DNA of 64,000 nt from Bacillota bacterium (lineage in GTDB: Bacteria; Bacillota; JAAYKD01): assembly GCA_012522585.1 (NCBI GenBank), contig JAAYKD010000069.1, positions 1,602-65,601 on the forward strand, in the 5' to 3' direction. The number at the start of each line of letters is the position of its first letter. Position 1 is the first letter of the stretch. The notes under the pieces were generated by a model. It was not told where the DNA came from. It worked only from the letters and a program-made list of their open reading frames with translations, and did no database searches. Of the stretch, positions 889 through 52,640 are shown piece after piece. The translations under genes were made by a program, and so were the position numbers.

Positions 889-1078
889 TTTCGAGAGAGT
901 GCGAAAGGCAATAGCTTTTCGACGCCGAAGGGGCCCGCGCGGGAAACTCTCAGGCAAAAGGATCGAAATCGGACGACCACTCCGGAAAGCCAGACTACCA
1001 GATGGATGTCTTGGCACCGAAGAAGCAATCCGCAGAGACCTTTAAACTAAAGGATCTTTTCGGGGAATCTTTCAGGTT
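889..1078 (+). promoter_or_regulatory. Glycine riboswitch. One well-conserved aptamer (about 890-975) plus a degenerate second aptamer (about 985-1075).
   Basis: Aptamer 1 contains GAGAG...GACGCCGAAGGGGC...GAAACTCTCAGGCAAAAGGA, matching the glycine-aptamer core. Aptamer 2 contains GGCACCGAAGAAGCAA...AAACTAAAGGATC. Confidence 0.6.
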
Positions 1079-1082
1079 ATAA

Positions 1083-1126
1083 GACGGAGGCGCACGAAAT
1101 ATCGTAGTGCCTCTGTCTTTTTTTAT
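1083..1126 (+). terminator. Intrinsic terminator serving as the riboswitch expression platform
   Basis: GACGGAGGCGCAC...GTGCCTCTGTC stem followed by TTTTTTT. Confidence 0.6.
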
Positions 1127-1164
1127 GAGCTTTAGCTACGAAATCAAGAAAGAGTGAAGAGAGT

Positions 1165-1302
1165 ATGGAGCACAAAACACCTTTATACGACTGCCATCTT
1201 ACAGCTGGAGCCAAAGCCACACCCTTTAGAGGCTATTTGCTCAAGGTTAAAATAGGAAAAGAAGACTTGATCGGTAACAAGGCACTTCCCCTAAAGAGCT
1301 GA
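1165..1302 (+). pseudogene. gcvT: Remnant of the 5' end of gcvT (aminomethyltransferase): 45 codons, then a stop
   Basis: The translation MEHKTPLYDCHLTAGAKATPFRGY.. matches the GcvT N-terminal motif (K/R-TPLYD-H...GAK...F-G), then diverges and terminates. It is preceded by a GA-rich RBS. Confidence 0.5.
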
Positions 1303-1422
1303 GCCGAAAGTTTTACAAGTTAGGCTAAAAGCGGCAGAGAGAGGCAGAGCTTAAGGATTTTGTGCTTTCTGAATCAAGCCAAAGGAAATAAAAGTTGATT
1401 ATAAAGAAAAGGAGCCAATAAT

Positions 1423-2820
1423 ATGCAAAATGAATTCGATCTTGCGGTAATTGGTGCAGGGCCTGGGGGCTATGTAGCTGCCATTAGAGGAGCTCAGTCA
1501 GGCATGAAGGTTGCACTCATTGAAGAAAGAGAAATTGGTGGCACTTGTTTAAACAGAGGATGCGTTCCCACCAAAGCGCTGATGCATTCCGCCAATCTTT
1601 ACCGCCAAATTAGCCGTAGCGATCTCTTCGGTATTGAAGCCACAGACCTAAAATACGATATGGAAAAAATCTATTCACGAAAAGACGAGGTTGTATCAAA
1701 GTTACGCAGTGGAGTTGAGTTTCTCATATCAGCTAATCAAATTGAAATCATCAGAAGCAGAGGCCTGGTTACAGACCAAAACACAATAAAAACAAAGGAC
1801 AGAGAGATTAAAGCTAAGAATATACTCATTGCCACCGGTTCCTCTCCTGCTCGACCTCCTATTCCGGGCTTGGATTTACCAGGGGTCATGACCAGCGATG
1901 AATTACTGAATCAGCAGCAAGGACCCGGCTGCCAAAGTCTCATCATCATCGGCGGAGGCGTTATAGGCATGGAATTCGCCGGAATATTTTCATCTTTCGG
2001 TTGCAAAGTCACCGTCATTGAGGCGATGGACCGTATTTTGTCAACCATGGATAGAGAAATCGCTCAAAATTTGAGTATGATCATGAGGAGGCGGGGTGTA
2101 ACTATAAATACGAGGGCAAGGGTAAACAAAATCGAGCAAACAGAAGAGGGCTTGATCTGCCATTATACCCAAAAAGAAACCTCTAAAGTTGCTGAAGCAC
2201 AAGCAGTGCTCGTGGCCATCGGGCGAAAACCAAATGTTGATGGATTATTCTCAGAAAACCTCAATATAAAGACTGAACGGGGAATCGTTGTTAACGAGCA
2301 TTTCCAAACCAACATCCCTGGTATCTATGCCATTGGAGATGTTATTTCTGATGGCATCCAGCTGGCTCATCTGGCTTCAGCACAAGGAATAACCGCTGTA
2401 TCTCATATGATAGGCAATCCTTCCCCCGTCGACCTCAACACAATACCCTCCTGCATCTACACTGAACCGGAAATTGCCTCTGTGGGTCTTTCTGCAGACC
2501 AAGCCAAGGCCCAAGGGCTTTCAATTAAAACAGGGAAATTCCCTATGTCGGGCAATGCAAAATCAATCATCGAAGATGAAGACCGAGGTTTTATCAAACT
2601 AGTCTTTGATAGTGAAACAGAGGTAATCCTCGGTGCACAAATGATGTGCGGCAGAGCTACCGATTTAATCAGCGAAATGTCAACAGCCATCGTCGCCAAG
2701 CTTACCTTGGCCGACCTAGGCTCCGTGATTCGACCTCATCCCACCTTTATCGAAGGGATCAGCGAAGCCTTAGATGGCACTCATGGCAAAGCCATTCATA
2801 TTGCACCTAGAAACCGCTAA
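1423..2820 (+). CDS. lpdA: Dihydrolipoyl dehydrogenase (E3/L-protein)
   Basis: FAD-binding GAGPGGYVAA, redox-disulfide CLNRGCVPTK, NAD site GGGVIGMEFAG, and a C-terminal dimerisation HPT motif. RBS AAGGAG upstream. Confidence 0.93.
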   Translation: MQNEFDLAVIGAGPGGYVAAIRGAQSGMKVALIEEREIGGTCLNRGCVPTKALMHSANLYRQISRSDLFGIEATDLKYDMEKIYSRKDEVVSKLRSGVEFLISANQIEIIRSRGLVTDQNTIKTKDREIKAKNILIATGSSPARPPIPGLDLPGVMTSDELLNQQQGPGCQSLIIIGGGVIGMEFAGIFSSFGCKVTVIEAMDRILSTMDREIAQNLSMIMRRRGVTINTRARVNKIEQTEEGLICHYTQKETSKVAEAQAVLVAIGRKPNVDGLFSENLNIKTERGIVVNEHFQTNIPGIYAIGDVISDGIQLAHLASAQGITAVSHMIGNPSPVDLNTIPSCIYTEPEIASVGLSADQAKAQGLSIKTGKFPMSGNAKSIIEDEDRGFIKLVFDSETEVILGAQMMCGRATDLISEMSTAIVAKLTLADLGSVIRPHPTFIEGISEALDGTHGKAIHIAPRNR

Positions 2821-3046: not shown

Positions 3047-5398
3047 TTATTCTTCTTGAGCAGTTCGAGCGATGATCTCCTCTTGATGGTATTTATCCAA
3101 ATTAACGAAATAATCGCTGTAACCGGCTACTCTGACTAAAAGATCTTTATATTCGGCTGGGTTCTGCTGGGCTTTTCTCAGTGTCTCAGTGTCCACCACA
3201 TTGAATTGGATGTGGTGACCGCCTAAACGAAAATAGGTTCTAATCAAGGCAGCCAATTTTTTCAAACCCTGCTCCCCTGCTAGAGTCGAAGGCATGAAGC
3301 GTTGATTGAGCAAGGTGCCTCCGGAGTAACTTTGATCCATTTTAGCCAAGGATTTAATCACTGCTGTGGGACCATTGCGATCAGCGCCGTGAGAAGGTGA
3401 AGTCCCATCTGATTCCGGCAGATGAGCCAAACGACCATTGGCGCTTGCTCCCAGCATTTTGCCAAAATAAACATGACAGGTTGTGGAGAGCATATTCAGA
3501 TGATAGGTGGGCCCTTTAGTGCTATGGCGCCCTTCAATATTATCTAAAAGGGATTGATAGACCCTTTGCATAATTTTATCGGCCCGATCATCATCGTTGC
3601 CATAGAAGGGTGTCTGATTGAGCAATTTTTGTCGCAGCGGCTCATGACCTTGGAAATTATCACTCAAGGCTTGTAGCAATTGCTCCAGCGGGACAGTCTT
3701 TTCATCATAGACATGGGTCTTGATAGCTGAAAGGCTGTCCGTCACCGTTCCTATACCGCAGCATTGAATATAGGTCGTATTATATTTAGGACCTCCGTCG
3801 TAGTAATCTTTGCCACTTTCAATACAGCCTTCGATGACCACGGAGAGGAAAGGAGCCGGAGCATATTTTCTGAACATATGTTCTAAATAGTTGTTGACTC
3901 TGATCTTGGTGTCGACGACGAAACTCAATTGCTTTTGGAAAGCTGCGTAGAGATCATCGAAACTTTCAAAATCTCGGCCCGTGCTCAAGCCGATTTTTTT
4001 ACCGCTCAAGGGGTCAACTCCATCGTTTAAAGTCAATTCCAAAACTTTAGGCACGTTGAGATAGCCGGTCAACAAATAGGCTTCCTTGCCGAAACAGCCT
4101 GTCTCGATACAGCCACTGTTTCCCCCTTCTCTGGCATCCTCAACGCTTTTGCCTGAGCGTACCTGTTCCATGATGACCATATCCGTATTGAAAACGGAAG
4201 GATAACCATAGCCCTTGCGGATAATGGCAGCTGCTTCTAGGAGGAATTTTTCCGGAGTTTTTGCGCTGATCTGAACATTACACTGAGGCTGCAATAAGTG
4301 AAGCTCATCGAAAACTTCCAACAAGAGATATGAGACTTCACTGACTCCATCACTGCCATCTCTTTGCAGGCCACCAATATTGATATTGACGAAATCATTA
4401 TAGGTTCCGCTTTCCAAGGCGGTCACACCGACTTTGGGTGGGGCCGGATGGTTGTTGAATTTTATCCATAAACAGCTCAAGAGCTCCTTAGCTTGATTTC
4501 TGGTCAAGGTGTTGGCAGCCAGTTCTCTAAAATAAAAGGGTGCTAAATGCTGATCTAAATGACCTGGGCTCATAGAATCCCAGCCGTTCAATTCCATGAT
4601 GGTGCCTAAATGGACAAACCAGTACATTTGAAGAGCATCATGAAAACTCTGGGGAGCTTGAGCCGGAATGCGGCGACAGCGCTCAGCTATATCCAACAAT
4701 TCGGCTTTACGCTCAGGGTTATCTTCCTCTTGGGCCAATGCTTGGGCTTTTTCAGCATGTCTTTGACCATAGCGAATCAGTGCCTGAGCGGAAATCATCA
4801 TAGCTTTATATTGCTCATTTTTATTGCCCGCTTCAGGGTCCTTGAGCCAGTCCAATTGGCTTTGCCGTTCTTTTATTTGCTCAATGAAATCGTCCATACC
4901 GTAAAGATAGATTCTACCGTCTAAGGCAGTATGTCCGGGAGCCCTTTGCTCCATAAATTCAGTGAACAAACCTGCTTCGTAGAGGTTCTTCCAAGTATCA
5001 TCGATTTCGGCAAAAGCTTTATCCCGCATACTGCGCCCCCGCCAATAAGGAATCACTTCTTTTTCATAGATCAGCTTATCCTCCGAACTGATCTTGTAGC
5101 CTGCCATCTCCCTCGTATCCAAAACATCTAGATCCTCTAGAGTATGACAAGTCAATTCCGGAAAAGAAGGGACGACTGCGGGAGCATTTCCTCTTTCCCC
5201 TACGATCAATTCCCCTTGACCGATATAGATTTCTTTCTGATCGCAGAAATGATAAAAATTCTTGGCTCGCATGACGGGAACCGAATATTTACCATCATTC
5301 TCTCGATAAAATTCTGTGACCAGCTTGGCCCTTTCCGCACTGAATTTTACAACAGCCTCTCGACTCTCTTGACGCAATCTGGCAACTCGTTCAGTCAT
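3047..5398 (-). CDS. Glycyl-radical enzyme of the PFL2/DhaB-like eliminase family (glycerol dehydratase / HypD / CutC-like). Substrate unassigned.
   Basis: C-terminal glycyl-radical motif RVAGYSDYF. Active-site thiyl-Cys/Glu motif GCIETG. WFVHLGTIMELNGWDSMSPG and FMEQRAPGH blocks resemble C. butyricum glycerol dehydratase. The likely true start is the second ATG (MTERV..), which has AGGAGG 7 nt upstream; the listed ORF begins 6 codons earlier. Confidence 0.85.
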   Translation of the reverse strand: MTERVARLRQESREAVVKFSAERAKLVTEFYRENDGKYSVPVMRAKNFYHFCDQKEIYIGQGELIVGERGNAPAVVPSFPELTCHTLEDLDVLDTREMAGYKISSEDKLIYEKEVIPYWRGRSMRDKAFAEIDDTWKNLYEAGLFTEFMEQRAPGHTALDGRIYLYGMDDFIEQIKERQSQLDWLKDPEAGNKNEQYKAMMISAQALIRYGQRHAEKAQALAQEEDNPERKAELLDIAERCRRIPAQAPQSFHDALQMYWFVHLGTIMELNGWDSMSPGHLDQHLAPFYFRELAANTLTRNQAKELLSCLWIKFNNHPAPPKVGVTALESGTYNDFVNINIGGLQRDGSDGVSEVSYLLLEVFDELHLLQPQCNVQISAKTPEKFLLEAAAIIRKGYGYPSVFNTDMVIMEQVRSGKSVEDAREGGNSGCIETGCFGKEAYLLTGYLNVPKVLELTLNDGVDPLSGKKIGLSTGRDFESFDDLYAAFQKQLSFVVDTKIRVNNYLEHMFRKYAPAPFLSVVIEGCIESGKDYYDGGPKYNTTYIQCCGIGTVTDSLSAIKTHVYDEKTVPLEQLLQALSDNFQGHEPLRQKLLNQTPFYGNDDDRADKIMQRVYQSLLDNIEGRHSTKGPTYHLNMLSTTCHVYFGKMLGASANGRLAHLPESDGTSPSHGADRNGPTAVIKSLAKMDQSYSGGTLLNQRFMPSTLAGEQGLKKLAALIRTYFRLGGHHIQFNVVDTETLRKAQQNPAEYKDLLVRVAGYSDYFVNLDKYHQEEIIARTAQEE

Positions 5399-5412
5399 TT
5401 TATTCCTCCTGA

Positions 5413-6291
5413 TCATTCTATGTTTCTTCGGGCTTCGAGACCACCGGCTCTTAAATAGTCTATGGCTCGGTCCATCTCAGATTCCGTTGGTGTTTCAATA
5501 TGGGGTAATTTATATTCTCGGTTCAATTTTTCATATTTGTTGATCTGCATATGGTGATAGGGCAATAGCTCCAGGGGCCAAGGATTTTCAAACTGCTTAA
5601 AAAAATCGATAATCCTATCGAGATTTTTTTTAGAATCGTTGATTCCCGGTATCAAAGGCATTCGAACAATACCGGCATAACCTGCTCTGATCAAATTGGC
5701 CAAGTTATTTAGAATCAGAGTGTTGTCAACACCTGTATACTTCTCATGTTCTCGGCCAGCCATATGTTTCAAATCGTAGAGAAATAGATCAATATGAGGA
5801 GCCAAGTCTGCTAAGATTGGCCAAGGGCTGTAGCCCGATGTATCCAAAGTTCGATGGATACCCTCCTGGCCTGACAATTTGAGCAACTCCAACAGAAATT
5901 CCGGTTGACTTAAAGGCTCACCACCGGAGAATGTAACTCCGCCACCTGATTCATCATAAAAGAGTCGATCCTTTAAAATGATCTCGTGAACTTCTTGAGC
6001 CCTTTTAGTTTCACCGACCCAAACCCGAGCTTGAGTCAAACAAGCATCAACACAAAGCCCGCAGAGCAAGCAATTTGCACTTTGCTCTAAGCCTTGGGGG
6101 CAAACTTCCAGACAGCGACGACAATCGATACACAGTTCTTCTTGCCAAAGAATCTCTTTAGAAAAACCTTGGCTTTCAGGATTGTGACACCACCAACAAT
6201 TCAAAGGACAGCCTTTGAAAAAAACCGTGGTGCGAATACCCGGACCGTCCTCGATACTGTAGCGCCTAATATTAAAAATGGTACCTTCCAT
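5413..6291 (-). CDS. Glycyl-radical enzyme activating enzyme (radical SAM, with two extra ferredoxin-like Cys clusters)
   Basis: CPLNCWWCHNPE (CX3CX2C) near the N-terminus. CIDCRRCLEVCP and CLLCGLCVDAC clusters. GGEP SAM motif. The stop overlaps the GRE start region. Confidence 0.9.
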   Translation of the reverse strand: MEGTIFNIRRYSIEDGPGIRTTVFFKGCPLNCWWCHNPESQGFSKEILWQEELCIDCRRCLEVCPQGLEQSANCLLCGLCVDACLTQARVWVGETKRAQEVHEIILKDRLFYDESGGGVTFSGGEPLSQPEFLLELLKLSGQEGIHRTLDTSGYSPWPILADLAPHIDLFLYDLKHMAGREHEKYTGVDNTLILNNLANLIRAGYAGIVRMPLIPGINDSKKNLDRIIDFFKQFENPWPLELLPYHHMQINKYEKLNREYKLPHIETPTESEMDRAIDYLRAGGLEARRNIE

Positions 6292-24512: not shown

Positions 24513-25664
24513 TCACTTGAGAATATCCTTCATTTTGCTAAAAAACCCTTTGCCTTTAGCAATTTCTTCCTCACCCATGGAAAGAGCGAATTGGGTCAGG
24601 GCTTCTCTTTGTTTATCGTTTAACTTTTTGGGTATTTCAATCTTAACCTGAACTTGCATGTCGCCGCGGCCATAACCGCCTAAATTAGGGAAACCCTTAC
24701 CTCGCATCCGGAAATGAGTTCCAGACTCTGTGCCTGCGGGAATTCGCAAGGATGCTGTGCCTTCTAATGTCGTCACCTTGACCTCTTCGCCGATGACAGC
24801 TTGAGTAAAGGTAATGCTGGCATCTGTATAAATATCGTCACCACGACGCTCGAAATCCTTATGGGGTCTGACAGAAACCACGACATAGAGATCACCGTTG
24901 GGGCCATTGCGCTCTCCAGGCTCTCCTTCGCCATTTAAGCGCAGACGTCGGCCGTGTTCGATACCGGCAGGAACCTTGACTTTGACAGGTCTGGTTTTAC
25001 GGACCCGACCGCTGCCGCTACAAGTGGTGCAAGGTTCTTTGATGATCTGTCCCGTGCCTTGACAATTGCTACAGGTTCGGACACTCATCATATTGCCCAA
25101 CATGGTCTGCTGCACAGTTTGAACTTGACCGCTGCCATTACAGACCGGACAGGTTTCAACTTTACTTCCCGGTTTAGCACCGCTGCCCGAGCAAGTCGAA
25201 CAATGTTCTTCTCTTTGAATCTGTATTTCTTTTTCAACTCCGAAATAGCTCTCTTCAAAGGTTATGGTCAAATTGACCCTCAGATCGTTTCCTTTGACCG
25301 GGCCGGTATGTGCCCTTTGGCCCATCCCACCCATGCCACCGGAGAAAAATGTTTCGAATATATCGCTGATATCGCCAAAGCCACTGCCTCCAAAGCCGCC
25401 TCCATAGGAACCGTAGCCACCGCCCATTCCCTGTTCAGGATCAAAGGCCGCATGACCATATTGATCGTAAAGACTGCGCTTTTGGCTATCTGAGAGAACA
25501 TCATAAGCTTCTTTTACTGCTTTAAATTTTTCGGCAGCTGATGGGTCATCAGGATTGGCATCAGGATGTAGCTCCCGGGCCAATTTGCGATAGGCTTTTT
25601 TGATAGTCGCCTCGTCTGCATTTTTATCAACGCCCAGCAGCTGATAATAGTCTTGTTTTGCCAT
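24513..25664 (-). CDS. dnaJ: Chaperone DnaJ
   Basis: J-domain with HPD. G/F-rich region. Four CxxCxGxG zinc-finger repeats. Confidence 0.97.
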
Positions 25665-25727
25665 TATTCAACATCCCTTCAGAGCAAAACCGGCTATTCA
25701 AAAAAGATTCATCGGTTTTTGCTTGTT

Positions 25728-27548
25728 TTATTTTGGATCCTCCGGATCAATTTCATATTCTGCGTCGACGACGGTATCGCCATCTTCTGTTTTTTCTTCC
25801 TCAACAGGAGCTTCTCCTTGTTGGTCTTCGTAAATCTTTGAGCTCAAAGTGTATAGATGCTGGTTCAAAGCTTCAGATGCTTCTTTGATGGCTTCTAAAT
25901 TATCGCCTTTTAAAGCTTCTTTAACTTTTTCTATGGCTGCTTCAACTTCAGCTTTTTCTTCCGGACTCAATTTGTCGCCCAGATCATTGATGGTCTTCTC
26001 AGTTTGATAGACTTGGTTGTCAGCTTGGTTGCGCAGTTCAACTTCTTCTTTCTTTTCTTTGTCGGCTGCCGCATTGATTTCGGCTTCCTTGACCATGCGA
26101 TCGATTTCTTCATCGCTTAAATTAGTTGAAGCGGTGATGGTAATATGCTGTTCTTTACCGGTGCCTTGGTCTTTGGCTGTTACATTGACAATGCCATTGG
26201 CATCGATATCGAAGGTGACTTCAATTTTCGGAACACCTCTGGGTGCTGTAATGATTCCGTCCAACATGAATCTGCCTAAGGTTGTATTATGAGCTGCCAT
26301 TTCTCTTTCACCCTGCAAAACATGAATCTCTACAGAGGTTTGACCATCAGCAGCAGTGGAGAAAATCTGAGATTTCGAAGTGGGAATAGTTGTATTGCGA
26401 TCGATCAGACGGGTGAAGATTCCGCCTAAGGTTTCCAAACCTAAAGAAAGCGGAGTCACATCTAAGAGAACCATACCTTTAACGTCACCTGAGAGAACTC
26501 CGGCTTGAATGGCTGCACCTTCCGAAACAGCTTCATCAGGGTTGACTCCTCTAAAGGGTTCTTTGCCTAAGAACTTATCGATTGCTTCTTGCACGGCAGG
26601 TATTCTGGTTGAACCACCGACTAAAATAATTTTATCCACCTGGTTGGGGGTCAAATCGGCATCTTTTAAAGCCTGGCGAACAGGTCCCATGGTCTGTTCC
26701 ACTAGATCAGCAGTCATTGCATCGAATTTAGCCCTGGTCAAGGTCAGATCCAGATGTTTAGGACCGCTGGCATCTGCTGTGATAAAGGGTAAATTGATAT
26801 TAGCCGTGAGCAAACCGGATAATTCAATTTTAGCTTTTTCTGCCGCTTCTTTCAAGCGTTGCATGGCACTGCGATCCTGGGAGAGATCGATACCACTATC
26901 TTTTTTAAATTCTGCTACCAACCAATCGACGATTCTCTGGTCGAAATCGTCACCGCCTAAGCGGGTATTGCCATTGGTCGATTTAACTTCGACCAAGCCT
27001 TCACTGATTTCCAAAATGGAAACGTCGAAGGTGCCGCCGCCTAGGTCATAGACCATGATGACTTGATCCTCTTCTTTATCCATGCCAAAAGCTAAGGCTG
27101 CAGCTGTAGGCTCGTTGATGATCCGCATAACTTCTAAACCAGCGATGGCTCCTGCATCCTTGGTAGCCTGTCTTTGTGAGTCGTTAAAATAAGCAGGCAC
27201 TGTAATTACAGCTTTATCAACTTTAGTACCCAAATAAGATTCGGCATCTTCTTTGAGTTTGCGTAAGATCATGGCAGTTATTTCTTGTGGGGTATAGGTT
27301 TTATCGTCGATGGTAACTTTATAATTGCTGCCCATCTCCCTTTTGATTGAACTGATCGTATGATCCGGATTGGTGACCGCTTGTCTTTTGGCAATCTGCC
27401 CGACCATACGCTCATCGCCTCTAAATGCCACAACAGAAGGGGTTAGACGACTACCTTCGGCATTGAGGATGACTGTAGGTTGTCCGCCTTCCATGACGGA
27501 AACCACAGAGTTCGTTGTTCCAAAGTCAATTCCAATTATTTTGCTCAT
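25728..27548 (-). CDS. dnaK: Chaperone DnaK (Hsp70)
   Basis: [18 protein letters not shown], and a C-terminal EEDK tail. The ORF track begins at GTG. The likely start is ATG (MSKIIG..) with a GGGAG RBS. Confidence 0.97.
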
Positions 27549-27574
27549 TTTATACACTCCCGTTTCTTTTTATC

Positions 27575-28141
27575 TTAATTTTTTATTATATGTGCAACCT
27601 GTACCATAGAGGCACGGATTACTTTCTCTTTTAACATATAGCCTTTGCGCAAAACCATGGTCACTGTATTGTCTTCTACCCCTTCAGGTGCGGGACAGGT
27701 TGTTACAGCTTCATGAAAATTAGGATCGAAGGGCAAATTTAAAGCTTCAATCTCCTGCAATCCTTCATTGGTCAACAGGTTGATCAGCTGACGGTAGATC
27801 AATTCAACCCCGGCTAAATAGCTTTCTTCATATTGACTATCCGTTTCAGCCGCTTCAATTGCTCTTTCAAAATCATCGATAATTGGCAGCATCTGGGTAA
27901 TCAATTTCTGAGCTGCATATTCGCTCAATTCTTCTTTTTCCCGGGCTGAGCGCCTGCGGAAATTGTCAAAATCCGCTTGCAGACGCATTGTTCTGGCTTC
28001 GGCTATTTTTAATTTTTCAGCAAATTCTTCTAAAATGTCTACTTCTTCTTGAAGCTCCTCCTCGGGAGGCATAACCTCAGGGGTTATTGCTTCTTTTTCT
28101 TCGACTTGAGAATTTTTATCATCCTTTTTCCTTAGAAACAA
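27575..28141 (-). CDS. grpE: Nucleotide exchange factor GrpE
   Basis: Acidic N-terminus and a GrpE C-terminal beta domain. Lies between dnaK and the chaperonin gene. Confidence 0.9.
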   Translation of the reverse strand: MFLRKKDDKNSQVEEKEAITPEVMPPEEELQEEVDILEEFAEKLKIAEARTMRLQADFDNFRRRSAREKEELSEYAAQKLITQMLPIIDDFERAIEAAETDSQYEESYLAGVELIYRQLINLLTNEGLQEIEALNLPFDPNFHEAVTTCPAPEGVEDNTVTMVLRKGYMLKEKVIRASMVQVAHIIKN

Positions 28142-28195: not shown

Positions 28196-29734
28196 CTAGT
28201 ATTCAGGGCTTTGATCTTTCTTTTTGATAATGGTATCAATGCGTAAAATTGCTTCAGCTACCTCACCGGCAGCTTTTAAAGCGTGTAATTTTACTAAAGT
28301 CGGATCTAAAATACCCTGCAAACTCAAATCTTTAACTTCGCCGCTATCGCAATCAATTGTGAGATTTTCATTTTTCTCTTCAGATTGAGCAGCTAAAACT
28401 TCTTCGATCTTCTCTAAAGGATTATATCCAGCATTATGGATAATTTGAGCTAAGGGACGTTTTAAAGCTTCTACCACAATATCCAAACCATAGGCAGACA
28501 TGCCTTTGAGTTGGTCTCTCAAGGGAGCTATGTGCCGAGCTGTGGCGATTTCCACTGCTCCACCTCCGCTGACCACTCCACCTTTGACCGCAGCCTGCAC
28601 AGCTGAAGCTGCATCCCGAGCGATTCTTTCTCGCTCTCCGACCACGGCTGATGTGGAAGCACCTACCAGAATAGTAGCTGTCTTCTGCCCTTGTCCTCCC
28701 AAAATTCGGAGATAACCCAATTTTTTATCATGAATAACCGAATCCGCTTGGCCTAAAAGACCCTTTAACTCAGTCAACTCTCTTTTTAAAGCATTTCTTT
28801 TAATGGGTTTGGCTCCGCTATGTTCTGCTATTTGACGCAGACTGCGCCTCAAGACCCTGGTCACTACCATGATACCAGCATCTGTCAAAACCTCCTCAGC
28901 TAAAGGATGGAGATTTTTATCAGTTAAAATGAGGTCAACTTCCAATTGGAGAATTCTTTCCAGCATCTGCTTAAACTCATTCTGCAATTCCATATAGCGG
29001 GCAAAGCCACTTTCGGTTGTCAGGGCCTCATCGTCTATTTCCTCAGGCTCTAGTGCGTCATCGATTAAAAGTATGCGAGCCTTTTCCACTTTTTCCGGCA
29101 TATCCTTGTTTAAAGGCTCTTTCTCTAAGATGATGCCAGCAAACACCTCGTTTTCTGCACCCTCTTTGGCCAAAATCAATTGGGAGAGTTTAAAATCTTC
29201 TTCTTCCAATTTTTCTTTTCCAACCAAAAGTGCTGCTTGCACAGTCAGATCGGCAATGTCTTCATGTTCACGACCGGCTACCAGAGCTATTTGTTTTAAA
29301 ATCTTCTCATCTAAAGTGAGCATAGCTTGACTGGATTGAGTGATATAACTCCTAGCCTCTTGCAGGCCAAAGCGCATACCATCGATAATTCGAGCCACCG
29401 GAACGCCCCGGTAGACATGTTCAGCACCTGCTGAAATCAAGGCATTGGCCATAATGGTGGCTGTGGTCGTGCCGTCGCCAATCTCCTCCTGTTGGGCTTT
29501 AGCAACATTGATTAAAAGCTGAGCTGCCGGATGAGTCACATCCATTTTTTCTAAAATGGTCACGCCGGCGTTGGTGATCAAAACATCGCCGTAGCGATCA
29601 ACCAGCATGGTATCCAAGCCTTTGGGACCAATAGTCCCTTCTACAGCCGCTGCAACAGCTCTGATCGCCGCCGCATTGTTGGCCAAGGCTCCGCTTCTCT
29701 CATCCATTTCTCGATTGGGTGCACTATTTGCCAT
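28196..29734 (-). CDS. Group II (thermosome/CCT-type) chaperonin subunit, 512 aa, embedded in the hrcA operon
   Basis: TCP-1/thermosome signatures LGPKGLDTMLVD, GDGTTTA (rather than GroEL-type motifs), and an apical/equatorial domain layout. AAGGAG RBS. Only 14 bp separate it from the hrcA stop. Confidence 0.8.
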   Translation of the reverse strand: MANSAPNREMDERSGALANNAAAIRAVAAAVEGTIGPKGLDTMLVDRYGDVLITNAGVTILEKMDVTHPAAQLLINVAKAQQEEIGDGTTTATIMANALISAGAEHVYRGVPVARIIDGMRFGLQEARSYITQSSQAMLTLDEKILKQIALVAGREHEDIADLTVQAALLVGKEKLEEEDFKLSQLILAKEGAENEVFAGIILEKEPLNKDMPEKVEKARILLIDDALEPEEIDDEALTTESGFARYMELQNEFKQMLERILQLEVDLILTDKNLHPLAEEVLTDAGIMVVTRVLRRSLRQIAEHSGAKPIKRNALKRELTELKGLLGQADSVIHDKKLGYLRILGGQGQKTATILVGASTSAVVGERERIARDAASAVQAAVKGGVVSGGGAVEIATARHIAPLRDQLKGMSAYGLDIVVEALKRPLAQIIHNAGYNPLEKIEEVLAAQSEEKNENLTIDCDSGEVKDLSLQGILDPTLVKLHALKAAGEVAEAILRIDTIIKKKDQSPEY

Positions 29735-29748
29735 ATTCGTTTTCTCCT

Positions 29749-30777
29749 TTATCCCTTGTTAAAAATATCGGTCAACAACTTGCTAACTTCTCTGACTGCT
29801 GTCATGGCTCTGGCATAATCCATTCTGGTTGGCCCTAAAACGCCAACCCAGCCCACCGGAGCACCATTCCATCTATACAGAGCAGTGACTAAACTACAAT
29901 TTTCAACTTCTTCCAATTGGTTTTCAGAACCAATGGTGACCTGAACATTGTCGGTGAATTGCTTTTCACCTACTAAAGAAAGCATTGCTTCGCGATGATC
30001 TAAAAGTTTTAAAATACTACGAACCCTATTGACATCCTGAAATTCAGGTTGCACTAAAATGCGCGCCGTCCCGCCTAAATAAATATCAGCGGTACTCTCA
30101 CCCAACAGAAGTTCTTGGATCAATTCAACTACTTGGTCGAATTGTTCGATGCGGCGACCAATATCCTGGCGCACATTGAGAATTCCACTTTTTAACATCT
30201 GATTCCAGGTTACATTATAGAAATTACGGTTAATATAATCGCTAATACCATCTAAATCGCTTTGCTCTATATCATCGGGTAAATTGATCATCCGGTTGGC
30301 GACAAGACCATTGTCGGATACCACAACTACCAGAGCTTTACCTTTTTGAACTTCCATCATATGAAGTTTTTGTAAACGACTACTGCCTGCTTGGGGCCCG
30401 GAGGCCAAAGCCATGTAATCGGTCAGTGAGGATAAGAGGTGAGCTGCTTCTTGAATCACATTTTCTAAGACTTGAGCCTGTTGATGATATATTTGTTTGA
30501 TAGCTTGAACTTCCTGCTCACTTAGGGTTGCTTCATCTAAAAGATTGTCAACGTAAAAACGATAACCACTTTCTGAGGGAATACGTCCGGCTGATGTATG
30601 AGGCTGGTGTAGAAAACCCATTTCTTCTAAATCGGCCATTTCATTGCGAATTGTTGCGGCACTGATATCCATCAGATAGCGTCGTGCTATCGTTCTGGAG
30701 CCCACAGGTTCGGCTGTGAGTATGTAGTCGCGCACAATTGCTTGCAGTATCTTTTGTTTCCGTGCATCCAAACTCAC
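29749..30777 (-). CDS. hrcA: Heat-inducible transcription repressor HrcA
   Basis: N-terminal wHTH (ILQAIVRDYI..EPVGSRTIA). HrcA family length. A CIRCE element lies upstream. Confidence 0.93.
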   Translation of the reverse strand: MSLDARKQKILQAIVRDYILTAEPVGSRTIARRYLMDISAATIRNEMADLEEMGFLHQPHTSAGRIPSESGYRFYVDNLLDEATLSEQEVQAIKQIYHQQAQVLENVIQEAAHLLSSLTDYMALASGPQAGSSRLQKLHMMEVQKGKALVVVVSDNGLVANRMINLPDDIEQSDLDGISDYINRNFYNVTWNQMLKSGILNVRQDIGRRIEQFDQVVELIQELLLGESTADIYLGGTARILVQPEFQDVNRVRSILKLLDHREAMLSLVGEKQFTDNVQVTIGSENQLEEVENCSLVTALYRWNGAPVGWVGVLGPTRMDYARAMTAVREVSKLLTDIFNKG

Positions 30778-48118: not shown

Positions 48119-49294
48119 ATGCAGTATCAAGGTTTAGTCATCTCTGTACCTAAGGAGATTATGCCTGGTGAAAAACGTGTTGCAGCGACACCGGAAACAG
48201 TCAAAAAACTCGTGTCCCAAGGAGCCACCCTATTAGTAGAAGAAAGTGCAGGTTTAGGTTCTTATTTTTCTGATGCAGAATATGTGGAAGCCGGTGCTAC
48301 TATTGTCGGTGATGTAGAAGAATTATTCTCCAAAGCCAATATCATATTCAAAGTAAAAGAGCCTCAATTCAACCATCAGGTAGGAAAACATGAAGTGGAT
48401 CTGATGAAAGCGGAGCAAGTTCTGATAACCTTCTTACATCCAGCAGCTCCTGCCAACCACGAAATGATTCAAAATTTGACGGCTAAAGGTGTAACGGCTT
48501 TGACTTTAGATGGAATACCTCGTATTTCCAGAGCCCAAGCTATGGACGCTTTGACTTCCATGAGCACTGTTGCCGGCTATAAATCAGTCTTGATGGCAGC
48601 TAACCGAGTACCAAAATTCCTGCCCATGATCGGCACTGCCATCGGTATGATGCCACCGGCCAATGTAACTGTCTTAGGAGCAGGAGTTGCCGGTTTACAG
48701 GCTATCGCCACAGCTAAACGCTTAGGCGCCGTGGTCTATGCTGCAGATATCCGACCGGAAGCTGCCGAGCATGCTAAGAGCCTAGGAGCAAGAATCGTGG
48801 AAACTGGTGTTCCGGCCGAAATTGCTATCGGTGAAGGTGGCTATGCCAAAGCCCTGCCCCAAGAATGGATTGTCAAAGAGCAAACTGCTCTCTACGATAC
48901 CATCATCAATTCAGATATCGTCATAGCAACTGCTTTAGTTCCCGGAAGAATGGCTCCCACCTTAATTACCGAAGAGATGGTCAAAGCCATGAAACCCGGC
49001 TCAGCCATCGTCGACGTTTCCATTGACCAAGGAGGCAACTGTGCTCTGACAGTGGGCGGCGAATTAATCGAACGCCACGGCATCAGCATCGACGGAACTA
49101 AGAATATTCCCGGTATGGTAGCCACCAGTGCAACCAGTATGTTCTCTAAAAATATAGTCAACTTTGTTGCCAATATCGTCAAAGACGGAAAGATTATCAT
49201 CGACACAAACGATGAAATTACCGATTCTACCCTGGTCTGTCAAAATGGAAAACTGGTTCACGCCGGTACCCGTGAGGCTTTAGGCCTTAATTAA
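48119..49294 (+). CDS. pntAA: NAD(P) transhydrogenase subunit alpha part 1 (dI, NAD(H)-binding)
   Basis: Alanine-dehydrogenase-like dI fold with GAGVAGLQA Rossmann motif and the N-terminal PKEIMPGEKRVAATPE signature. Confidence 0.92.
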   Translation: MQYQGLVISVPKEIMPGEKRVAATPETVKKLVSQGATLLVEESAGLGSYFSDAEYVEAGATIVGDVEELFSKANIIFKVKEPQFNHQVGKHEVDLMKAEQVLITFLHPAAPANHEMIQNLTAKGVTALTLDGIPRISRAQAMDALTSMSTVAGYKSVLMAANRVPKFLPMIGTAIGMMPPANVTVLGAGVAGLQAIATAKRLGAVVYAADIRPEAAEHAKSLGARIVETGVPAEIAIGEGGYAKALPQEWIVKEQTALYDTIINSDIVIATALVPGRMAPTLITEEMVKAMKPGSAIVDVSIDQGGNCALTVGGELIERHGISIDGTKNIPGMVATSATSMFSKNIVNFVANIVKDGKIIIDTNDEITDSTLVCQNGKLVHAGTREALGLN

Positions 49295-49607: not shown

Positions 49608-52600
49608 ATGGAACCGATTTATATCATTATCTCTATCGTTTTAGCAGCTCTCGTTCTTCTCGGCATCAAACTCATGAGTTCTCCCAAAACAGCCGTCCAA
49701 GGTAATTTAATCAGCGCCTTCAGTATGTTGGCGGCAGTAATTTTGGTGCTTTGGACTAACAATATTTTAAGTCTCCCTCTATTGTGGGCAGCAATAGCCA
49801 TCGGAAGTATAATCGGCTATGTTCTGGGTATGAAAGTCACCATGATTCAAATGCCTCAGGTTGTTGCTCTTTTAAACGGATTGGGAGGCGGAGCTTCCCT
49901 TTTAGTTGCAGCAGCTGAAATTCTCAGCAACTTTAATCAAATGGACGCTTTTAGTAAAGTGAGCGGTCAATTGGCTTTAATCGTCGGTGGTATCACCCTC
50001 TCAGGCAGCATGATTGCAGCAGCCAAGTTGGACAGAAGGATGAGTCAACGTCCCGTAGTCCTCAAAGGCCACAATATTTTAGCCAACGGTAGTTTGGTCA
50101 TCATGATTGTTGCCACTTTTCTCACCTTATTGGACAATTCACCTTATATTTTCTTATCCTTCCTGATTTTAATACTATCCCTAGCCTATGGTTATCTTTT
50201 CTCTGTCCGAGTAGGCGGAGCTGATATGCCTATCACCATCAGTTTGTTAAACTCCTTTTCCGGATTAGCAGGAGCAATAGTTGGTTTTACCATAGGTGAG
50301 CCACTTTTGGTTGCAGTCGGTGCCATTGTCGGAGCCTCGGGTCTGATTTTGACTCAAATCATGTGTAAAGCCATGAATCGCTCCTTAGGCAGTGTCTTAA
50401 GCGGAGGCACCTCCAAACCGAGTAGCAAACCCAAGGTCGTGCCTGCGAAAGTGGAAGAGCCCGTTTTAACAGAGCCCATAAAAGAAGAAGTTGCTAAAAG
50501 TTTAGGGGATTTATTAAAAGAAGCCCAACGAGTCATCATCATACCAGGCTATGGCATGGCCTTGGCTCAGGCTCAAAATGAAGTAAAAGCCCTGACCGAT
50601 GCACTCATCGCCCAGGGTAAACAGGTAGAATTCGCTATACACCCCGTAGCCGGACGGATGCCCGGACATATGAATGTCCTTTTAGCAGAGGTTGATGTTC
50701 CCTACGAATTGATGCGAGAGATGGACGATATCAATCCTCTCTTTGCCGAAACGGATGTAGCCATCGTGGTTGGATCTTGTGACGTTGTCAATCCAGCCGC
50801 CAACACAGCCGAAGATACCCCCATCTACGGAATGCCTGTTCTTTCCGTAGAAAACGCCAAACATGTAATCGTTTGCAATTTAGATACAAACCCTGGCTAT
50901 TCTGGCGTAGACAATCCTCTCTATGAGATGGAACATGTCAGACTCCTTTTGGGAGATGCCAAAGCAACTCTCAAGCAATTACTGGCTGAATTTAAAGAGG
51001 AAAAGAAATCTGAGCCCCAGGAGATCGAAGAAGAAAAAACTCCAAGCTCTCCTTCCTATTTAGAACTATTGCACCAAGGAGAAAAAGTTATCTTCGTTCC
51101 CGGATACGGTATGGCCTTAGCCCAAGCCCAATCATTGGTCAAACAGTTGGCTGATGCTTTGGAAGAAAAAGGCAAAGAGGTCAAATTTGCCATCCACCCT
51201 GTAGCCGGACGAATGCCCGGTCACATGAATGTGCTCTTAGCAGAAACGGATGTGCCTTACGATAAACTTTGGGAAATGGACGATATCAATCCTCTCTTCC
51301 CGGAAACCGATATAGTCATCATCGTTGGTGCCAATGACGTAGTCAACCCGGCAGCCAACACTGCAGAAGACACACCCATCTACGGTATGCCCGTCTTATC
51401 AGTTGAAAATGCCAAACATGTAATTGTCTGTAACTTAGATAAAAGCCCTGGCTATTCCGGCGTAGATAATCCTTTATACGAAATGGATAATGTGACTCTG
51501 CTTTTAGGCGACGCTAAAGAGAGCCTGACTCAACTGATCGACCAGTTTAAACAAGGACCTATAGCCAAAGAGCCGGAGCCTCTAGCTCAAGGAACAGACA
51601 CTCTAACCACTGTTCTGGCTAAACCTGAAAGAGTCATCATCGTGCCTGGATATGGCATGGCTTTAGCCCAAGCTCAAACCCAGGTCAAGGAGATTTATGA
51701 AACCTTGGAGGCCAAGGGAACAGAAGTGGAATTTGCCATTCACCCAGTGGCAGGACGGATGCCCGGACATATGAATGTGCTCTTAGCAGAAGTCGATATT
51801 CCTTATGAAAAATTGAGAGAAATGGATGATATCAACCCTCTCTTCCCGGAAACAGATCTGGTCATCATTGTGGGCGCCAATGACGTAGTCAACCCGGCAG
51901 CCAACACAGCTGAGGACACACCCATTTACGGCATGCCCATTCTCAATGTAGATCAAGCTAAGCATATTGTGGTTTGCAATTTGGATCAAAGCCCAGGTTA
52001 TTCCGGTGTGGATAACCCCCTATACGAGATGGACAATGTCACTCTTTTGTTGGGCGATGCCAAGGACAGCCTGAATAAAATACTGGATATCTTCAAGGCA
52101 GAACCCTCAGCAGCCCCAGAAGCAGAACCAACTTCAGTAGCTCAAACTTCAGTCTTAGCCGCAGCTAAAAAGGTCATCATCGTACCAGGCTATGGCATGG
52201 CTTTAGCTCAGGCTCAAACTCTAGTCAAAAGTGTTTACGATGCCCTAGAAGCCAAGGGTGCAGAGGTGGAATTCGCCATCCACCCGGTGGCAGGACGCAT
52301 GCACGGCCACATGAACGTTCTCTTAGCAGAAGTCGATGTTCCTTACGAAAAACTGAGAGAGATGGACGATATCAACCCTCTCTTCCCGGAAACCGACGTG
52401 GTCATCGTAGTGGGCGCCAATGACGTAGTCAACCCGGCGGCCAATACAGCCGAGGACACACCTATTTATGGGATGCCCATCTTAAATGTAGACCAAGCCA
52501 AACACATCATAGTCTGCAACTTGGATAGGAGCCCAGGTTATTCCGGCGTAGACAACCCCCTATACGATATGGAGAATGTGACTTTGCTTCTAGGTGATGC

Positions 52601-52640
52601 CAAAGCATCTTTAGAAATCCTTCTCGAAGAATTGAAATAA
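49608..52640 (+). CDS. pntB: NAD(P) transhydrogenase subunit beta carrying four tandem dIII (NADP(H)-binding) domains (1010 aa)
   Basis: Residues 1 to about 290 form the multi-TM dII domain. They are followed by four repeats of about 180 aa, each with PGYGMALAQAQ, AIHPVAGRMPGHMNVLLAE, GANDVVNPAANTAEDTPIYGMP and NPLYEM. Confidence 0.9.
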   Translation: MEPIYIIISIVLAALVLLGIKLMSSPKTAVQGNLISAFSMLAAVILVLWTNNILSLPLLWAAIAIGSIIGYVLGMKVTMIQMPQVVALLNGLGGGASLLVAAAEILSNFNQMDAFSKVSGQLALIVGGITLSGSMIAAAKLDRRMSQRPVVLKGHNILANGSLVIMIVATFLTLLDNSPYIFLSFLILILSLAYGYLFSVRVGGADMPITISLLNSFSGLAGAIVGFTIGEPLLVAVGAIVGASGLILTQIMCKAMNRSLGSVLSGGTSKPSSKPKVVPAKVEEPVLTEPIKEEVAKSLGDLLKEAQRVIIIPGYGMALAQAQNEVKALTDALIAQGKQVEFAIHPVAGRMPGHMNVLLAEVDVPYELMREMDDINPLFAETDVAIVVGSCDVVNPAANTAEDTPIYGMPVLSVENAKHVIVCNLDTNPGYSGVDNPLYEMEHVRLLLGDAKATLKQLLAEFKEEKKSEPQEIEEEKTPSSPSYLELLHQGEKVIFVPGYGMALAQAQSLVKQLADALEEKGKEVKFAIHPVAGRMPGHMNVLLAETDVPYDKLWEMDDINPLFPETDIVIIVGANDVVNPAANTAEDTPIYGMPVLSVENAKHVIVCNLDKSPGYSGVDNPLYEMDNVTLLLGDAKESLTQLIDQFKQGPIAKEPEPLAQGTDTLTTVLAKPERVIIVPGYGMALAQAQTQVKEIYETLEAKGTEVEFAIHPVAGRMPGHMNVLLAEVDIPYEKLREMDDINPLFPETDLVIIVGANDVVNPAANTAEDTPIYGMPILNVDQAKHIVVCNLDQSPGYSGVDNPLYEMDNVTLLLGDAKDSLNKILDIFKAEPSAAPEAEPTSVAQTSVLAAAKKVIIVPGYGMALAQAQTLVKSVYDALEAKGAEVEFAIHPVAGRMHGHMNVLLAEVDVPYEKLREMDDINPLFPETDVVIVVGANDVVNPAANTAEDTPIYGMPILNVDQAKHIIVCNLDRSPGYSGVDNPLYDMENVTLLLGDAKASLEILLEELK
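50526..52640 (+). repeat. Intragenic tandem repeat: four units of about 540-560 bp (starts about 50526, 51084, 51630, 52170), each encoding one dIII domain
   Basis: Self-alignment of the pntB sequence. Copies differ mainly at third-codon positions. Confidence 0.9.

Follow-up and report, generated by a model that had tools for sequence, protein, structure and literature searches.

A tandem glycine riboswitch upstream of a gcvT pseudogene and an intact lpdA: a probable relic of a glycine-cleavage operon

The closest described system is the glycine riboswitch (RF00504) of the Bacillus subtilis gcvT-gcvPA-gcvPB operon, in which two aptamers are followed by a single terminator and work with ON-type logic, and which has been studied in vivo (PMC5666159). 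In GCV-regulating tandem riboswitches generally, aptamer 1 is better conserved, and the second aptamer is the weaker one (PMC6944388). Singlet riboswitches with a degenerate “ghost” aptamer have also been described (PMC5066625, PMC6944388). No literature coupling a glycine riboswitch with lipoamide dehydrogenase was found.

The locus considered here lies in a 64-kb stretch of DNA, all of which was analysed (the window). It is very probably a relic glycine-cleavage operon, in which an ON-type tandem riboswitch is followed by a destroyed gcvT, with lpdA as the sole functional gene, presumably induced by glycine. Its features are listed below; alignments refer to the nearest relative, L083.

802-829, + strand: sigma-70-type promoter (TTGACA-16 nt-TATAAT, 12/12 matches), 53 nt 5′ of aptamer 1
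882-975, + strand: glycine riboswitch aptamer 1 (RF00504, 58.9 bits, E 1.3e-09)
976-1097, + strand: second aptamer of the glycine riboswitch, its P3b extended by a long insertion (RF00504, 40.5 bits, E 8.9e-05)
1081 to about 1126, + strand: intrinsic terminator, the putative expression platform (hairpin 1081-1119, then a U-tract to about 1126; minimum free energy -26.2 kcal/mol)
1153-1163, + strand: degraded Shine-Dalgarno (SD) sequence of the former gcvT, GTGAAGAGAGT (anti-SD duplex -4.9 kcal/mol, 0-nt spacing)
1165-1302, + strand: 45-codon ORF, the open part of the pseudogene
1165-1242, + strand: gcvT pseudogene fragment A, codons 1-26 (55/73 nt identical to L083 282-354)
1243-1346, + strand: junction of deletion 1 and gcvT fragment B, codons about 259-292 (codon-level alignment to L083 1057-1156)
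1347-1354, + strand: junction of deletion 2, the last nucleotides of gcvT, and its original TAA (collinear alignment to L083)
1355-1422, + strand: retained gcvT-lpdA spacer, 68 nt, equal in length to that of L083
1423-2820, + strand: lpdA, intact, encoding dihydrolipoyl dehydrogenase of 465 aa (TIGR01350, 519.5 bits against a cut-off of 408.8)
2824-2860, + strand: terminator hairpin closing the transcription unit (-18.1 kcal/mol, followed by a T-run)
3047-5416, opposite strand: hypD, convergent with lpdA

The covariance-model scan proposed in the earlier note, performed with Rfam cmscan, returns two aptamers above the RF00504 gathering score of 32 bits, both spanning model positions 1-94 of 94. 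The good aptamer described there, whose quoted motifs are located at 893-963, is thus confirmed, as are the weaker second aptamer and the terminator hairpin. The two aptamers are adjacent and precede one terminator, as in the tandem type of RF00504. Comparison with L083 and five other relatives has revealed that the P1 and P2 pairs of aptamer 1 are preserved by compensatory changes; in this alignment of seven sequences, a small sample, two-sided changes occur at 14 of the 48 consensus pairs, with the pairs retained in the window. Relatives with intact operons have second-aptamer scores of 37.7-43 bits on RF00504. Because these relatives and the GCV-regulating tandem riboswitches show the same imbalance, the lower score of aptamer 2 is no sign of decay; judged by sequence comparison, it is the norm of the clade.

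The 5′ arm of the terminator (1081-1097) includes the 3′ strand of P1 of the second aptamer (1085-1092), so that the two structures are predicted to be mutually exclusive, and the relatives share this layout. The hairpin is conserved in the relatives' alignment; its counterpart in L083 is weaker (-22.8 kcal/mol). These observations support a real riboswitch with a predicted ON-type terminator platform, which probably still switches in response to glycine. Without glycine, the terminator at 1081-1126 would form; with glycine, aptamer-2 P1 would sequester the 5′ arm of the terminator, and transcription would read through. The perfect promoter site is found only at 802-829, and promoter-like sites are not in excess across the region. 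Two weak promoter-like matches (9/12) at 1225-1253 and 1395-1422 could allow expression of lpdA independently of the riboswitch, their number being no higher than chance. Upstream, a transporter gene has a 101-bp duplication of its 3′ end, which may mark a recombination event that introduced the locus.

The first ORF behind the riboswitch indeed encodes the 45-aa peptide quoted in the earlier note, which had described a GcvT match of about 25 residues that then stops. The N-terminal match holds, whereas the match does not stop there, as codons about 259-292 of gcvT are also present. A custom GcvT profile was made from the sequences of 68 relatives and run against the six-frame translation of the whole 64-kb window; it matches fragment A with E 1.5e-06, and no other match to it is better than E 2. 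By blastx, fragment A is similar to the N-terminus of GcvT from over 40 relatives. Deletion 1, of about 0.7 kb and in frame, joins codons 1-26 to codons about 259-292, and a +1 frameshift near 1296 generates the TGA at 1300-1302. The ORF's final 19 codons, and another 17 that continue in the +1 frame, are gcvT-derived; when corrected for the frameshift, the fragment B peptide scores 16.9 bits over positions 258-292 of the GcvT profile, while the best of 2000 shuffles reached 4.3. Deletion 2, of about 0.2 kb, covers codons about 293-358, and behind it the window (1345-1440) becomes collinear with L083 1356-1451 (73% identity over 96 nt). Altogether, the remnant comprises about 190 nt, with about 60 of 360 gcvT codons left and about 890 nt missing relative to gcvT of L083. 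To map the junctions, local alignments were anchored and codons were aligned with codons; aligning the DNA globally at a low cost of gap extension gave spurious short blocks.

The 45-aa ORF matches no Pfam or NCBIfam family and lacks the complete domains of a GcvT protein (PF01571 and PF08669; TIGR00528). Its descent from gcvT is indicated by homology and by its orthologous position between the same riboswitch and lpdA. Of its 59 residues, the remnant has 15 that are absent from all 69 GcvT sequences, including changes at the invariant G16, F266, and G284, versus 0-7 such residues (median 1) in a real GcvT. The proportion of non-synonymous differences (pN) amounts to 0.28 for the remnant and 0.13 for lpdA. 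Translation signals have decayed as well: gcvT of L083 bears the SD GAAGGAG (-8.4 kcal/mol, 9-nt spacing), and in comparison, the window lacks about 9 nt of the interval separating SD and ATG. On these alignments, the 45-codon ORF is a gcvT pseudogene fragment and not a functional GcvT.

The earlier note had suggested that the stub might act as a leader peptide. That the stub functions as a leader peptide or as a small protein, by modulating lpdA or on its own account, is very unlikely, even though deletion 1, by preserving the frame, leaves 45 codons open, and even though the stub is annotated as a gene in three other assemblies. Its degraded SD abuts the ATG, its stop codon arises from a +1 frameshift within gcvT-derived sequence, and its changes at positions invariant in GcvT point to drift rather than to new constraint. 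Since the ORF ends 120 nt before lpdA, translational coupling is impossible. The known 45-aa forms come from one species, where the sole polymorphism seen (1274 G>C, in assembly L087) is non-synonymous; outside the species, blastx against the relatives and a search of 5.8 billion proteins have yielded no homologue of the stub other than full-length GcvT. Neither a working ribosome-binding site nor a conserved peptide or position, which would mark a regulatory leader peptide or uORF, is seen, and the suggestion finds no support.

With a metagenome-assembled genome as the source of the window, one should also consider that gcvT was collapsed or wrongly joined during assembly. Such an assembly or sequencing artefact is scarcely credible: the junctions are the same in three other independent assemblies (L001, L002, and L087) from different samples and assemblers, and the remnant has many substitutions besides the deletions. 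In the corresponding records, the sequence recurs with a single mismatch along 5730 nt (ENA ERZ941572), without any difference along 5193 nt (JGI 3300038805), and at 99.7% identity (ENA ERZ25038406); L001 and L002 barely differ from the window, and L087 departs from it at 10 positions in 2.9 kb. An artefact was rejected on the recurrence of the structure in four independent assemblies, the window included.

The next intact gene is dihydrolipoyl dehydrogenase, exactly as the earlier note had it. Residues 4-460 of LpdA cover positions 1-461 of TIGR01350, the next best family, MerA, scoring under its own cut-off, and the protein consists of the Pfam domains Pyr_redox_2 and Pyr_redox_dim. We take the redox-active CxxxxC disulfide and a C-terminal His-Glu pair to be the marks of the dihydrolipoyl dehydrogenase family; both are found in the translation, as GGTCLNRGCVPTK and RPHPTFIEG, respectively. 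Relative to L083, dN is 0.14 and dS is saturated. LpdA keeps 91 of the 94 columns whose conservation in the family is 95% or higher; its three deviations (I>V, G>S, K>R) lie at the top of the family range, the relative having none, and an incipient relaxation of constraint on LpdA may conceivably have begun.

The spacer in front of lpdA is well preserved, with 54 of 69 nt identical to L083 in the region 1372-1440, and the lpdA SD (AAGGAG, 1409-1414) is equally good in the window and in L083 (-8.1 kcal/mol, 7-8 nt spacing). Between 1130 and 1422, neither a terminator-like site on the + strand nor another Rfam element was detected. This arrangement supports lpdA as the apparently sole functional gene remaining in the transcription unit; read-through would then reach lpdA, and the riboswitch presumably controls this gene alone. 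From the terminator to lpdA, a transcript would now contain about 260 nt of untranslated RNA, which could cut read-through via Rho or RNA decay.

In the nearest relative, represented by contigs L083 and L084 (Logan SRR25621789/90), the riboswitch precedes an intact gcvT and then lpdA, and neither gcvH nor gcvP lies in the interval. The GcvT of this relative, 360 aa long, scores 365.8 bits on TIGR00528 (cut-off 235.85) and contains GCV_T and GCV_T_C. The LpdA proteins are 77% identical and the riboswitches 73%, the terminator position is common to both, and the downstream genes for hypD, an activase, and a flavin reductase are shared as well. In more than 60 more distant loci (47-63% identity), the genes are arranged as gcvT-H-PA-PB(-lplA)-lpdA or sdaAB-sdaAA-lpdA-gcvT-H-PA-PB-lplA; the arrangement gcvT-gcvH-gcvPA-gcvPB-(lplA)-lpdA accounts for 49 of 80 loci (e.g., L005, L006, and L024). 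Because gcvH and gcvP are already absent between gcvT and lpdA in L083/L084, gcvT decay is the only event visible in the window, and the comparison with the more distant relatives suggests that gcvH-PA-PB(-lplA) had been lost or relocated before gcvT decayed. The ancestral state is drawn here from one relative lineage, whose two contigs stem from a pair of related sequencing runs. The earlier view of the locus as a relic of a glycine-cleavage operon is thereby upheld as regards the loss of gcvT but not as regards a joint deletion of gcvT, gcvH, and gcvP, for the relative holds gcvT only.

It might be supposed that one large deletion took most of gcvT together with gcvH, gcvPA, and gcvPB and joined the 5′ end of gcvT to lpdA, given that the distant loci carry full gcv gene sets with lpdA. 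This is very unlikely: gcvH/P are already missing between the intact gcvT and lpdA of the relative with 77% LpdA identity, and the window preserves an internal piece of gcvT (codons about 259-292), the stop codon of that gene, and the spacer of 68 nt. These parts could not have survived a deletion from gcvT to gcvPB, which is thus refuted as a recent event. The single deletion was rejected on the gene order of the relative and the surviving gcvT fragments.

The search for the missing partners was carried out at several scales. With profiles built for GcvH, PA, PB, LplA, and SdaA, no gcvH, gcvPA, gcvPB, or lplA was found within the 64-kb window. Among representative genome contigs, nothing is closer than 56% identity to LpdA, so that the species of the window is absent from the representative genomes. 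Metagenome contigs queried with the relative's GcvT gave no match above 63%, a search whose 8-mer seeding might miss a protein of about 75% identity. Finally, no GcvT with an identity between 64% and 100% to that of the relative occurs among 5.8 billion proteins, in which the species is sampled several times. These searches thus yielded no second gcvT of close kinship; a distant gcvT paralogue may still reside elsewhere.

The death of gcvT, the absence of the other cleavage genes within 64 kb and of a close GcvT among the proteins searched, and the three deviations in LpdA against none in the relative could also mean that the riboswitch is a fossil, with lpdA either expressed from another promoter or silent and the whole locus being lost. 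This is unlikely, however, as both aptamers score as in the relatives with intact operons, their stems are kept via compensatory changes, the terminator is stronger than that of the relative, the perfect consensus promoter is retained, and lpdA, which has no frameshift or stop, keeps 91/94 columns and lies 110 bits over the equivalog cut-off. A comparably low probability is assigned to the riboswitch and lpdA having been purposely retained after loss of H/P and then T, with LpdA serving a non-canonical role. Such a role might be, for example, T-independent or differently partnered lipoyl/disulfide redox in an anaerobe fermenting glycine and hydroxyproline; if true, a riboswitch regulon would have been naturally shifted by deletion.

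The preferred reading of a relic operon implies the following course. In a recent ancestor, the read-through transcript would have coded for GcvT and LpdA, as that of the nearest relative still does. gcvT would then have been destroyed by the in-frame loss of about 0.7 kb, the +1 frameshift, a further loss of about 0.2 kb, and the degradation of the ribosome-binding site, the 45-codon ORF being the part of the remnant that may stay open just by chance. lpdA, with its own spacer and Shine-Dalgarno sequence, appears to stay under purifying selection and is presumably still induced by glycine. This is ordinary gene-by-gene operon erosion with no sign of a new mechanism.

The locus thus offers a snapshot, dated by comparison, of the erosion of a riboswitch-controlled operon. 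The series leads from gcvT-H-PA-PB-lplA-lpdA in distant relatives via gcvT-lpdA in the sister lineage to pseudo-gcvT-lpdA in the window, with riboswitch, promoter, terminator, and the last gene intact throughout. It also carries a warning for annotation: what several assemblies list as a 45-aa gene is a piece of a pseudogene. Moreover, the locus may serve as a construct made by nature, with a single gene that is not glycine-specific placed under a tandem glycine switch; as such, it would be of interest only if the genome has no other cleavage proteins.

Compared with the known systems, the window shares with Bacillus subtilis the two aptamers, the single terminator, and the predicted ON-type logic. 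The Bacillus subtilis operon has no lpdA and begins with gcvT, whereas at the present locus a pseudogene stands first behind the riboswitch, and lpdA is the one intact gene after it. L083/L084 differ in gcvT, which is intact and has a strong SD there; in the window it has lost about 890 nt, is frameshifted, and has a degraded SD. The clostridial gcvT-gcvH-gcvPA-gcvPB-(lplA)-lpdA operons resemble the window in their homologous riboswitch, the GcvT N-terminus, LpdA (47-56% identity), and the last position of lpdA; they keep full P, H, and T, while the lineage of the window has no H, PA, PB, or lplA at this locus, and the window itself is also without T. Finally, as in the singlet riboswitches with a ghost aptamer, one aptamer is weaker than the other, but in the window both pass the Rfam threshold at full length, in keeping with a true tandem riboswitch.

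The locus is a standard tandem glycine riboswitch followed by gcvT, now a pseudogene, and by lpdA, which is intact. The observation of the earlier note, which placed a riboswitch, a stub and an intact lpdA here, is confirmed as a whole, and its interpretation is supported in part. The unit is composed as follows (all on the + strand):

802–829, +, sigma-70 promoter with the perfect consensus TTGACA-16 nt-TATAAT (motif match)
882–975, +, glycine aptamer 1 (RF00504, 58.9 bits, full-length)
976–1097, +, glycine aptamer 2 (RF00504, 40.5 bits, full-length)
1081–1119, +, terminator hairpin (-26.2 kcal/mol), then a U-run to 1126
1165–1302, +, 45-codon ORF, gcvT remnant (blastx, GcvT profile, L083 alignment)
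1423–2820, +, lpdA, dihydrolipoyl dehydrogenase, 465 codons (domains, TIGR01350, motifs)
2824–2860, +, terminator hairpin closing the unit (-18.1 kcal/mol)

Both back-to-back aptamers exceed the Rfam gathering score for RF00504 (32 bits), so the covariance scan bears out the proposed tandem riboswitch. The 3′ strand of the aptamer-2 P1 helix (1085–1092) lies inside the terminator hairpin region, the layout of a classical ON-type transcriptional platform. The two scores fall within the ranges of relatives with complete operons (48–68 bits for first aptamers, 37.7–43 for second ones), and a weaker second aptamer is the pattern reported for tandem switches that regulate glycine cleavage (PMC6944388). 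In a seven-sequence alignment, the helices are preserved via compensatory changes, and the odd features of aptamer 2, GAAGAAGCAA and UUUCAGGU, are common to the whole clade. The riboswitch does not appear to be decaying; we infer from sequence that it still answers glycine and that read-through reaches lpdA over an untranslated remnant of ~260 nt.

The upstream Mem_trans (auxin-efflux-carrier family) gene (6–689) has its last 33 codons and stop tandemly duplicated (588–690 and 691–793, + strand), the 691–793 copy lying directly 5′ of the promoter that serves the riboswitch. Ten nucleotides distinguish the two copies, and since most of the differences are synonymous (eight, against two that are not, L>P and V>M), the untranslated second copy looks evolved as coding DNA. 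The duplication, also present in three other independent assemblies of the species (L001, L002, and L087), may be a scar of recombination or horizontal transfer.

When region 1100–1425 was compared by blastx with the ORFs of 80 related loci, it matched GcvT N-termini (residues 1–27) and, more weakly, residues ~258–276 and, in another frame, ~278–294. When all six frames of the 64-kb window were translated and searched with a GcvT profile of 68 relatives, the stub was matched with E 1.5e-06, no other match there being better than E 2. After frameshift correction, the second piece scored 16.9 bits on profile positions 258–292, while the best of 2000 shuffles reached 4.3.

An LpdA search of 5.8 billion proteins returned the same species (99–100%) and one lineage at 77%, beyond which no match exceeded 62%. 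Two Logan runs supplied the contigs of this nearest lineage, L083 and L084, in which a tandem glycine riboswitch with a terminator precedes gcvT, a 68-nt spacer, and lpdA. Its gcvT is intact (360 aa, GCV_T and GCV_T_C domains, TIGR00528 365.8 bits, cut-off 235.85). The window and L083 align as follows:

884–1236 = L083 1–354, riboswitch, terminator and gcvT codons 1–24, 73% identity
1246–1346 = L083 1057–1156, gcvT codons 259–292 with one added base near 1296, 33/43 nt over 1304–1346
1345–1440 = L083 1356–1451, final gcvT nucleotides and TAA, spacer and lpdA start, 73% identity

These blocks therefore reveal four gcvT lesions: an in-frame loss of ~0.7 kb (codons ~27–258); a +1 frameshift, in which the base added near 1296 leads to the TGA at 1300–1302; a further ~0.2-kb deletion (codons ~293–358); and a loss of ~9 nt between the SD and ATG, plus a GGAG-to-GAGAG change. 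Judged by sequence, the stub is a gcvT pseudogene. The N-terminal match described earlier thus holds, but not its extent of ~25 residues, as gcvT-derived sequence continues with codons 259–292.

It had also been suggested that the stub might act as a leader peptide. This role is rejected because the remnant is decaying. Its SD directly abuts the ATG and forms a weak anti-SD duplex of -4.9 kcal/mol (-8.4 kcal/mol and 9-nt spacing for the relative's gcvT), and 15 of its 59 residues, including those at the invariant G16, F266, and G284, are absent from all 69 GcvT sequences, real GcvT proteins having 0–7 such residues (median 1). Non-synonymous divergence from the relative amounts to 0.28, vs 0.13 for lpdA, and the single stub polymorphism across assemblies is non-synonymous. 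Finally, the ORF stops 120 nt short of lpdA, so translational coupling is impossible.

lpdA itself does not seem to be decaying. Its product bears Pyr_redox_2 and Pyr_redox_dim domains, the CxxxxC disulfide and HPTxxE motifs, and scores 519.5 bits with TIGR01350 (cut-off 408.8). It retains 91 of the 94 columns of at least 95% family conservation; the three deviations are conservative changes, yet few members of the family range as high in their number. SD pairing (-8.1 kcal/mol, spacing 7–8 nt) is alike in the window and the relative, and dN against L083 is 0.14, with dS saturated.

On the far side of the 2824–2860 terminator, the convergent hypD closes the unit. This gene (trans-4-hydroxy-L-proline dehydratase; NF043068 1186 bits, cut-off 1100) and a glycyl-radical activase gene occupy 3047–6291 (- strand), and their synteny is retained in L083; hypD, the activase, and the flavin reductase-rubredoxin genes are common to the relative and the window. 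Glycine and hydroxyproline are both substrates derived from collagen.

Neither gcvH, gcvPA, gcvPB, nor lplA occurs in the 64-kb window, nor does a second gcvT, and Pfam annotation of its other genes gave none related to glycine reductase. Neither the collection of 5.8 billion proteins nor the JGI metagenomes yielded a GcvT 64–100% identical to the relative's, although four or more assemblies of the species exist and a metagenome-assembled genome of it has been deposited (protein NLN83374.1). This argues against a close second copy, whereas a divergent one may exist elsewhere in the genome. A search with the L083 GcvT also returned P0126, a 465-aa GcvT-family protein 50% identical over 85% of the query; it scores 571 bits, above 360-aa matches at 64% identity, and may carry an insertion or partial duplication.

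Elsewhere in the window, a PntB transhydrogenase subunit of 1010 aa (49608–52640, + strand; pntA-like gene at 48119–49294) has one membrane domain and then four tandem NADP(H)-binding dIII copies, starting near residues 309, 494, 676, and 856. An ordinary PntB has ~460 aa and a single dIII domain. The copies share 70–79% of protein and 68–75% of DNA sequence, and are therefore no assembly repeat. A thermosome-like (Cpn60_TCP1, archaeal-type) chaperonin (28196–29734, - strand) lies between hrcA (29749–30777) and grpE-dnaK-dnaJ (24513–28141); it stays under the NCBIfam thermosome cut-offs (~300 bits vs 400–671) and resembles bacterial chaperonins of the 'group III' type, known from some Firmicutes.

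It is improbable that LpdA, induced by glycine, has taken on a function beyond the canonical cleavage system; if true, this would be the sole reading to raise the interest of the locus. Erosion of a glycine-cleavage operon is the preferred reading, and the earlier proposal of one with gcvT/H/P deleted stands for gcvT, decayed by the L083 alignment, but not for H/P, as gcvH, gcvPA, and gcvPB are already absent between gcvT and lpdA in L083/L084. Among 80 loci of species-representative genomes (LpdA 47–56% identical), all those long enough to tell carry gcvT-gcvH-gcvPA-gcvPB, in most cases then lplA, then lpdA, an order found exactly in 49. The closest metagenomic outgroups (60–63% identity) show riboswitch-sdaAB-sdaAA-lpdA-gcvT-gcvH-gcvPA-gcvPB-lplA or, in the part of L085 fetched, gcvPA-gcvPB-lpdA. 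In L086 (5955–14456; L089 and L094 alike), a tandem glycine riboswitch is followed by L-serine dehydratase genes (sdaAB-sdaAA) and lpdA ahead of gcvT, all under the one switch. Given these fuller operons, the sister lineage, with its gcvT-lpdA pair, already shows a reduced form. Probably H, PA, PB, and lplA were first lost or moved from the locus, a step deduced by parsimony, and gcvT then decayed in the window's species. Beside the full operons of its relatives, the locus is the last stage so far in a stepwise erosion.
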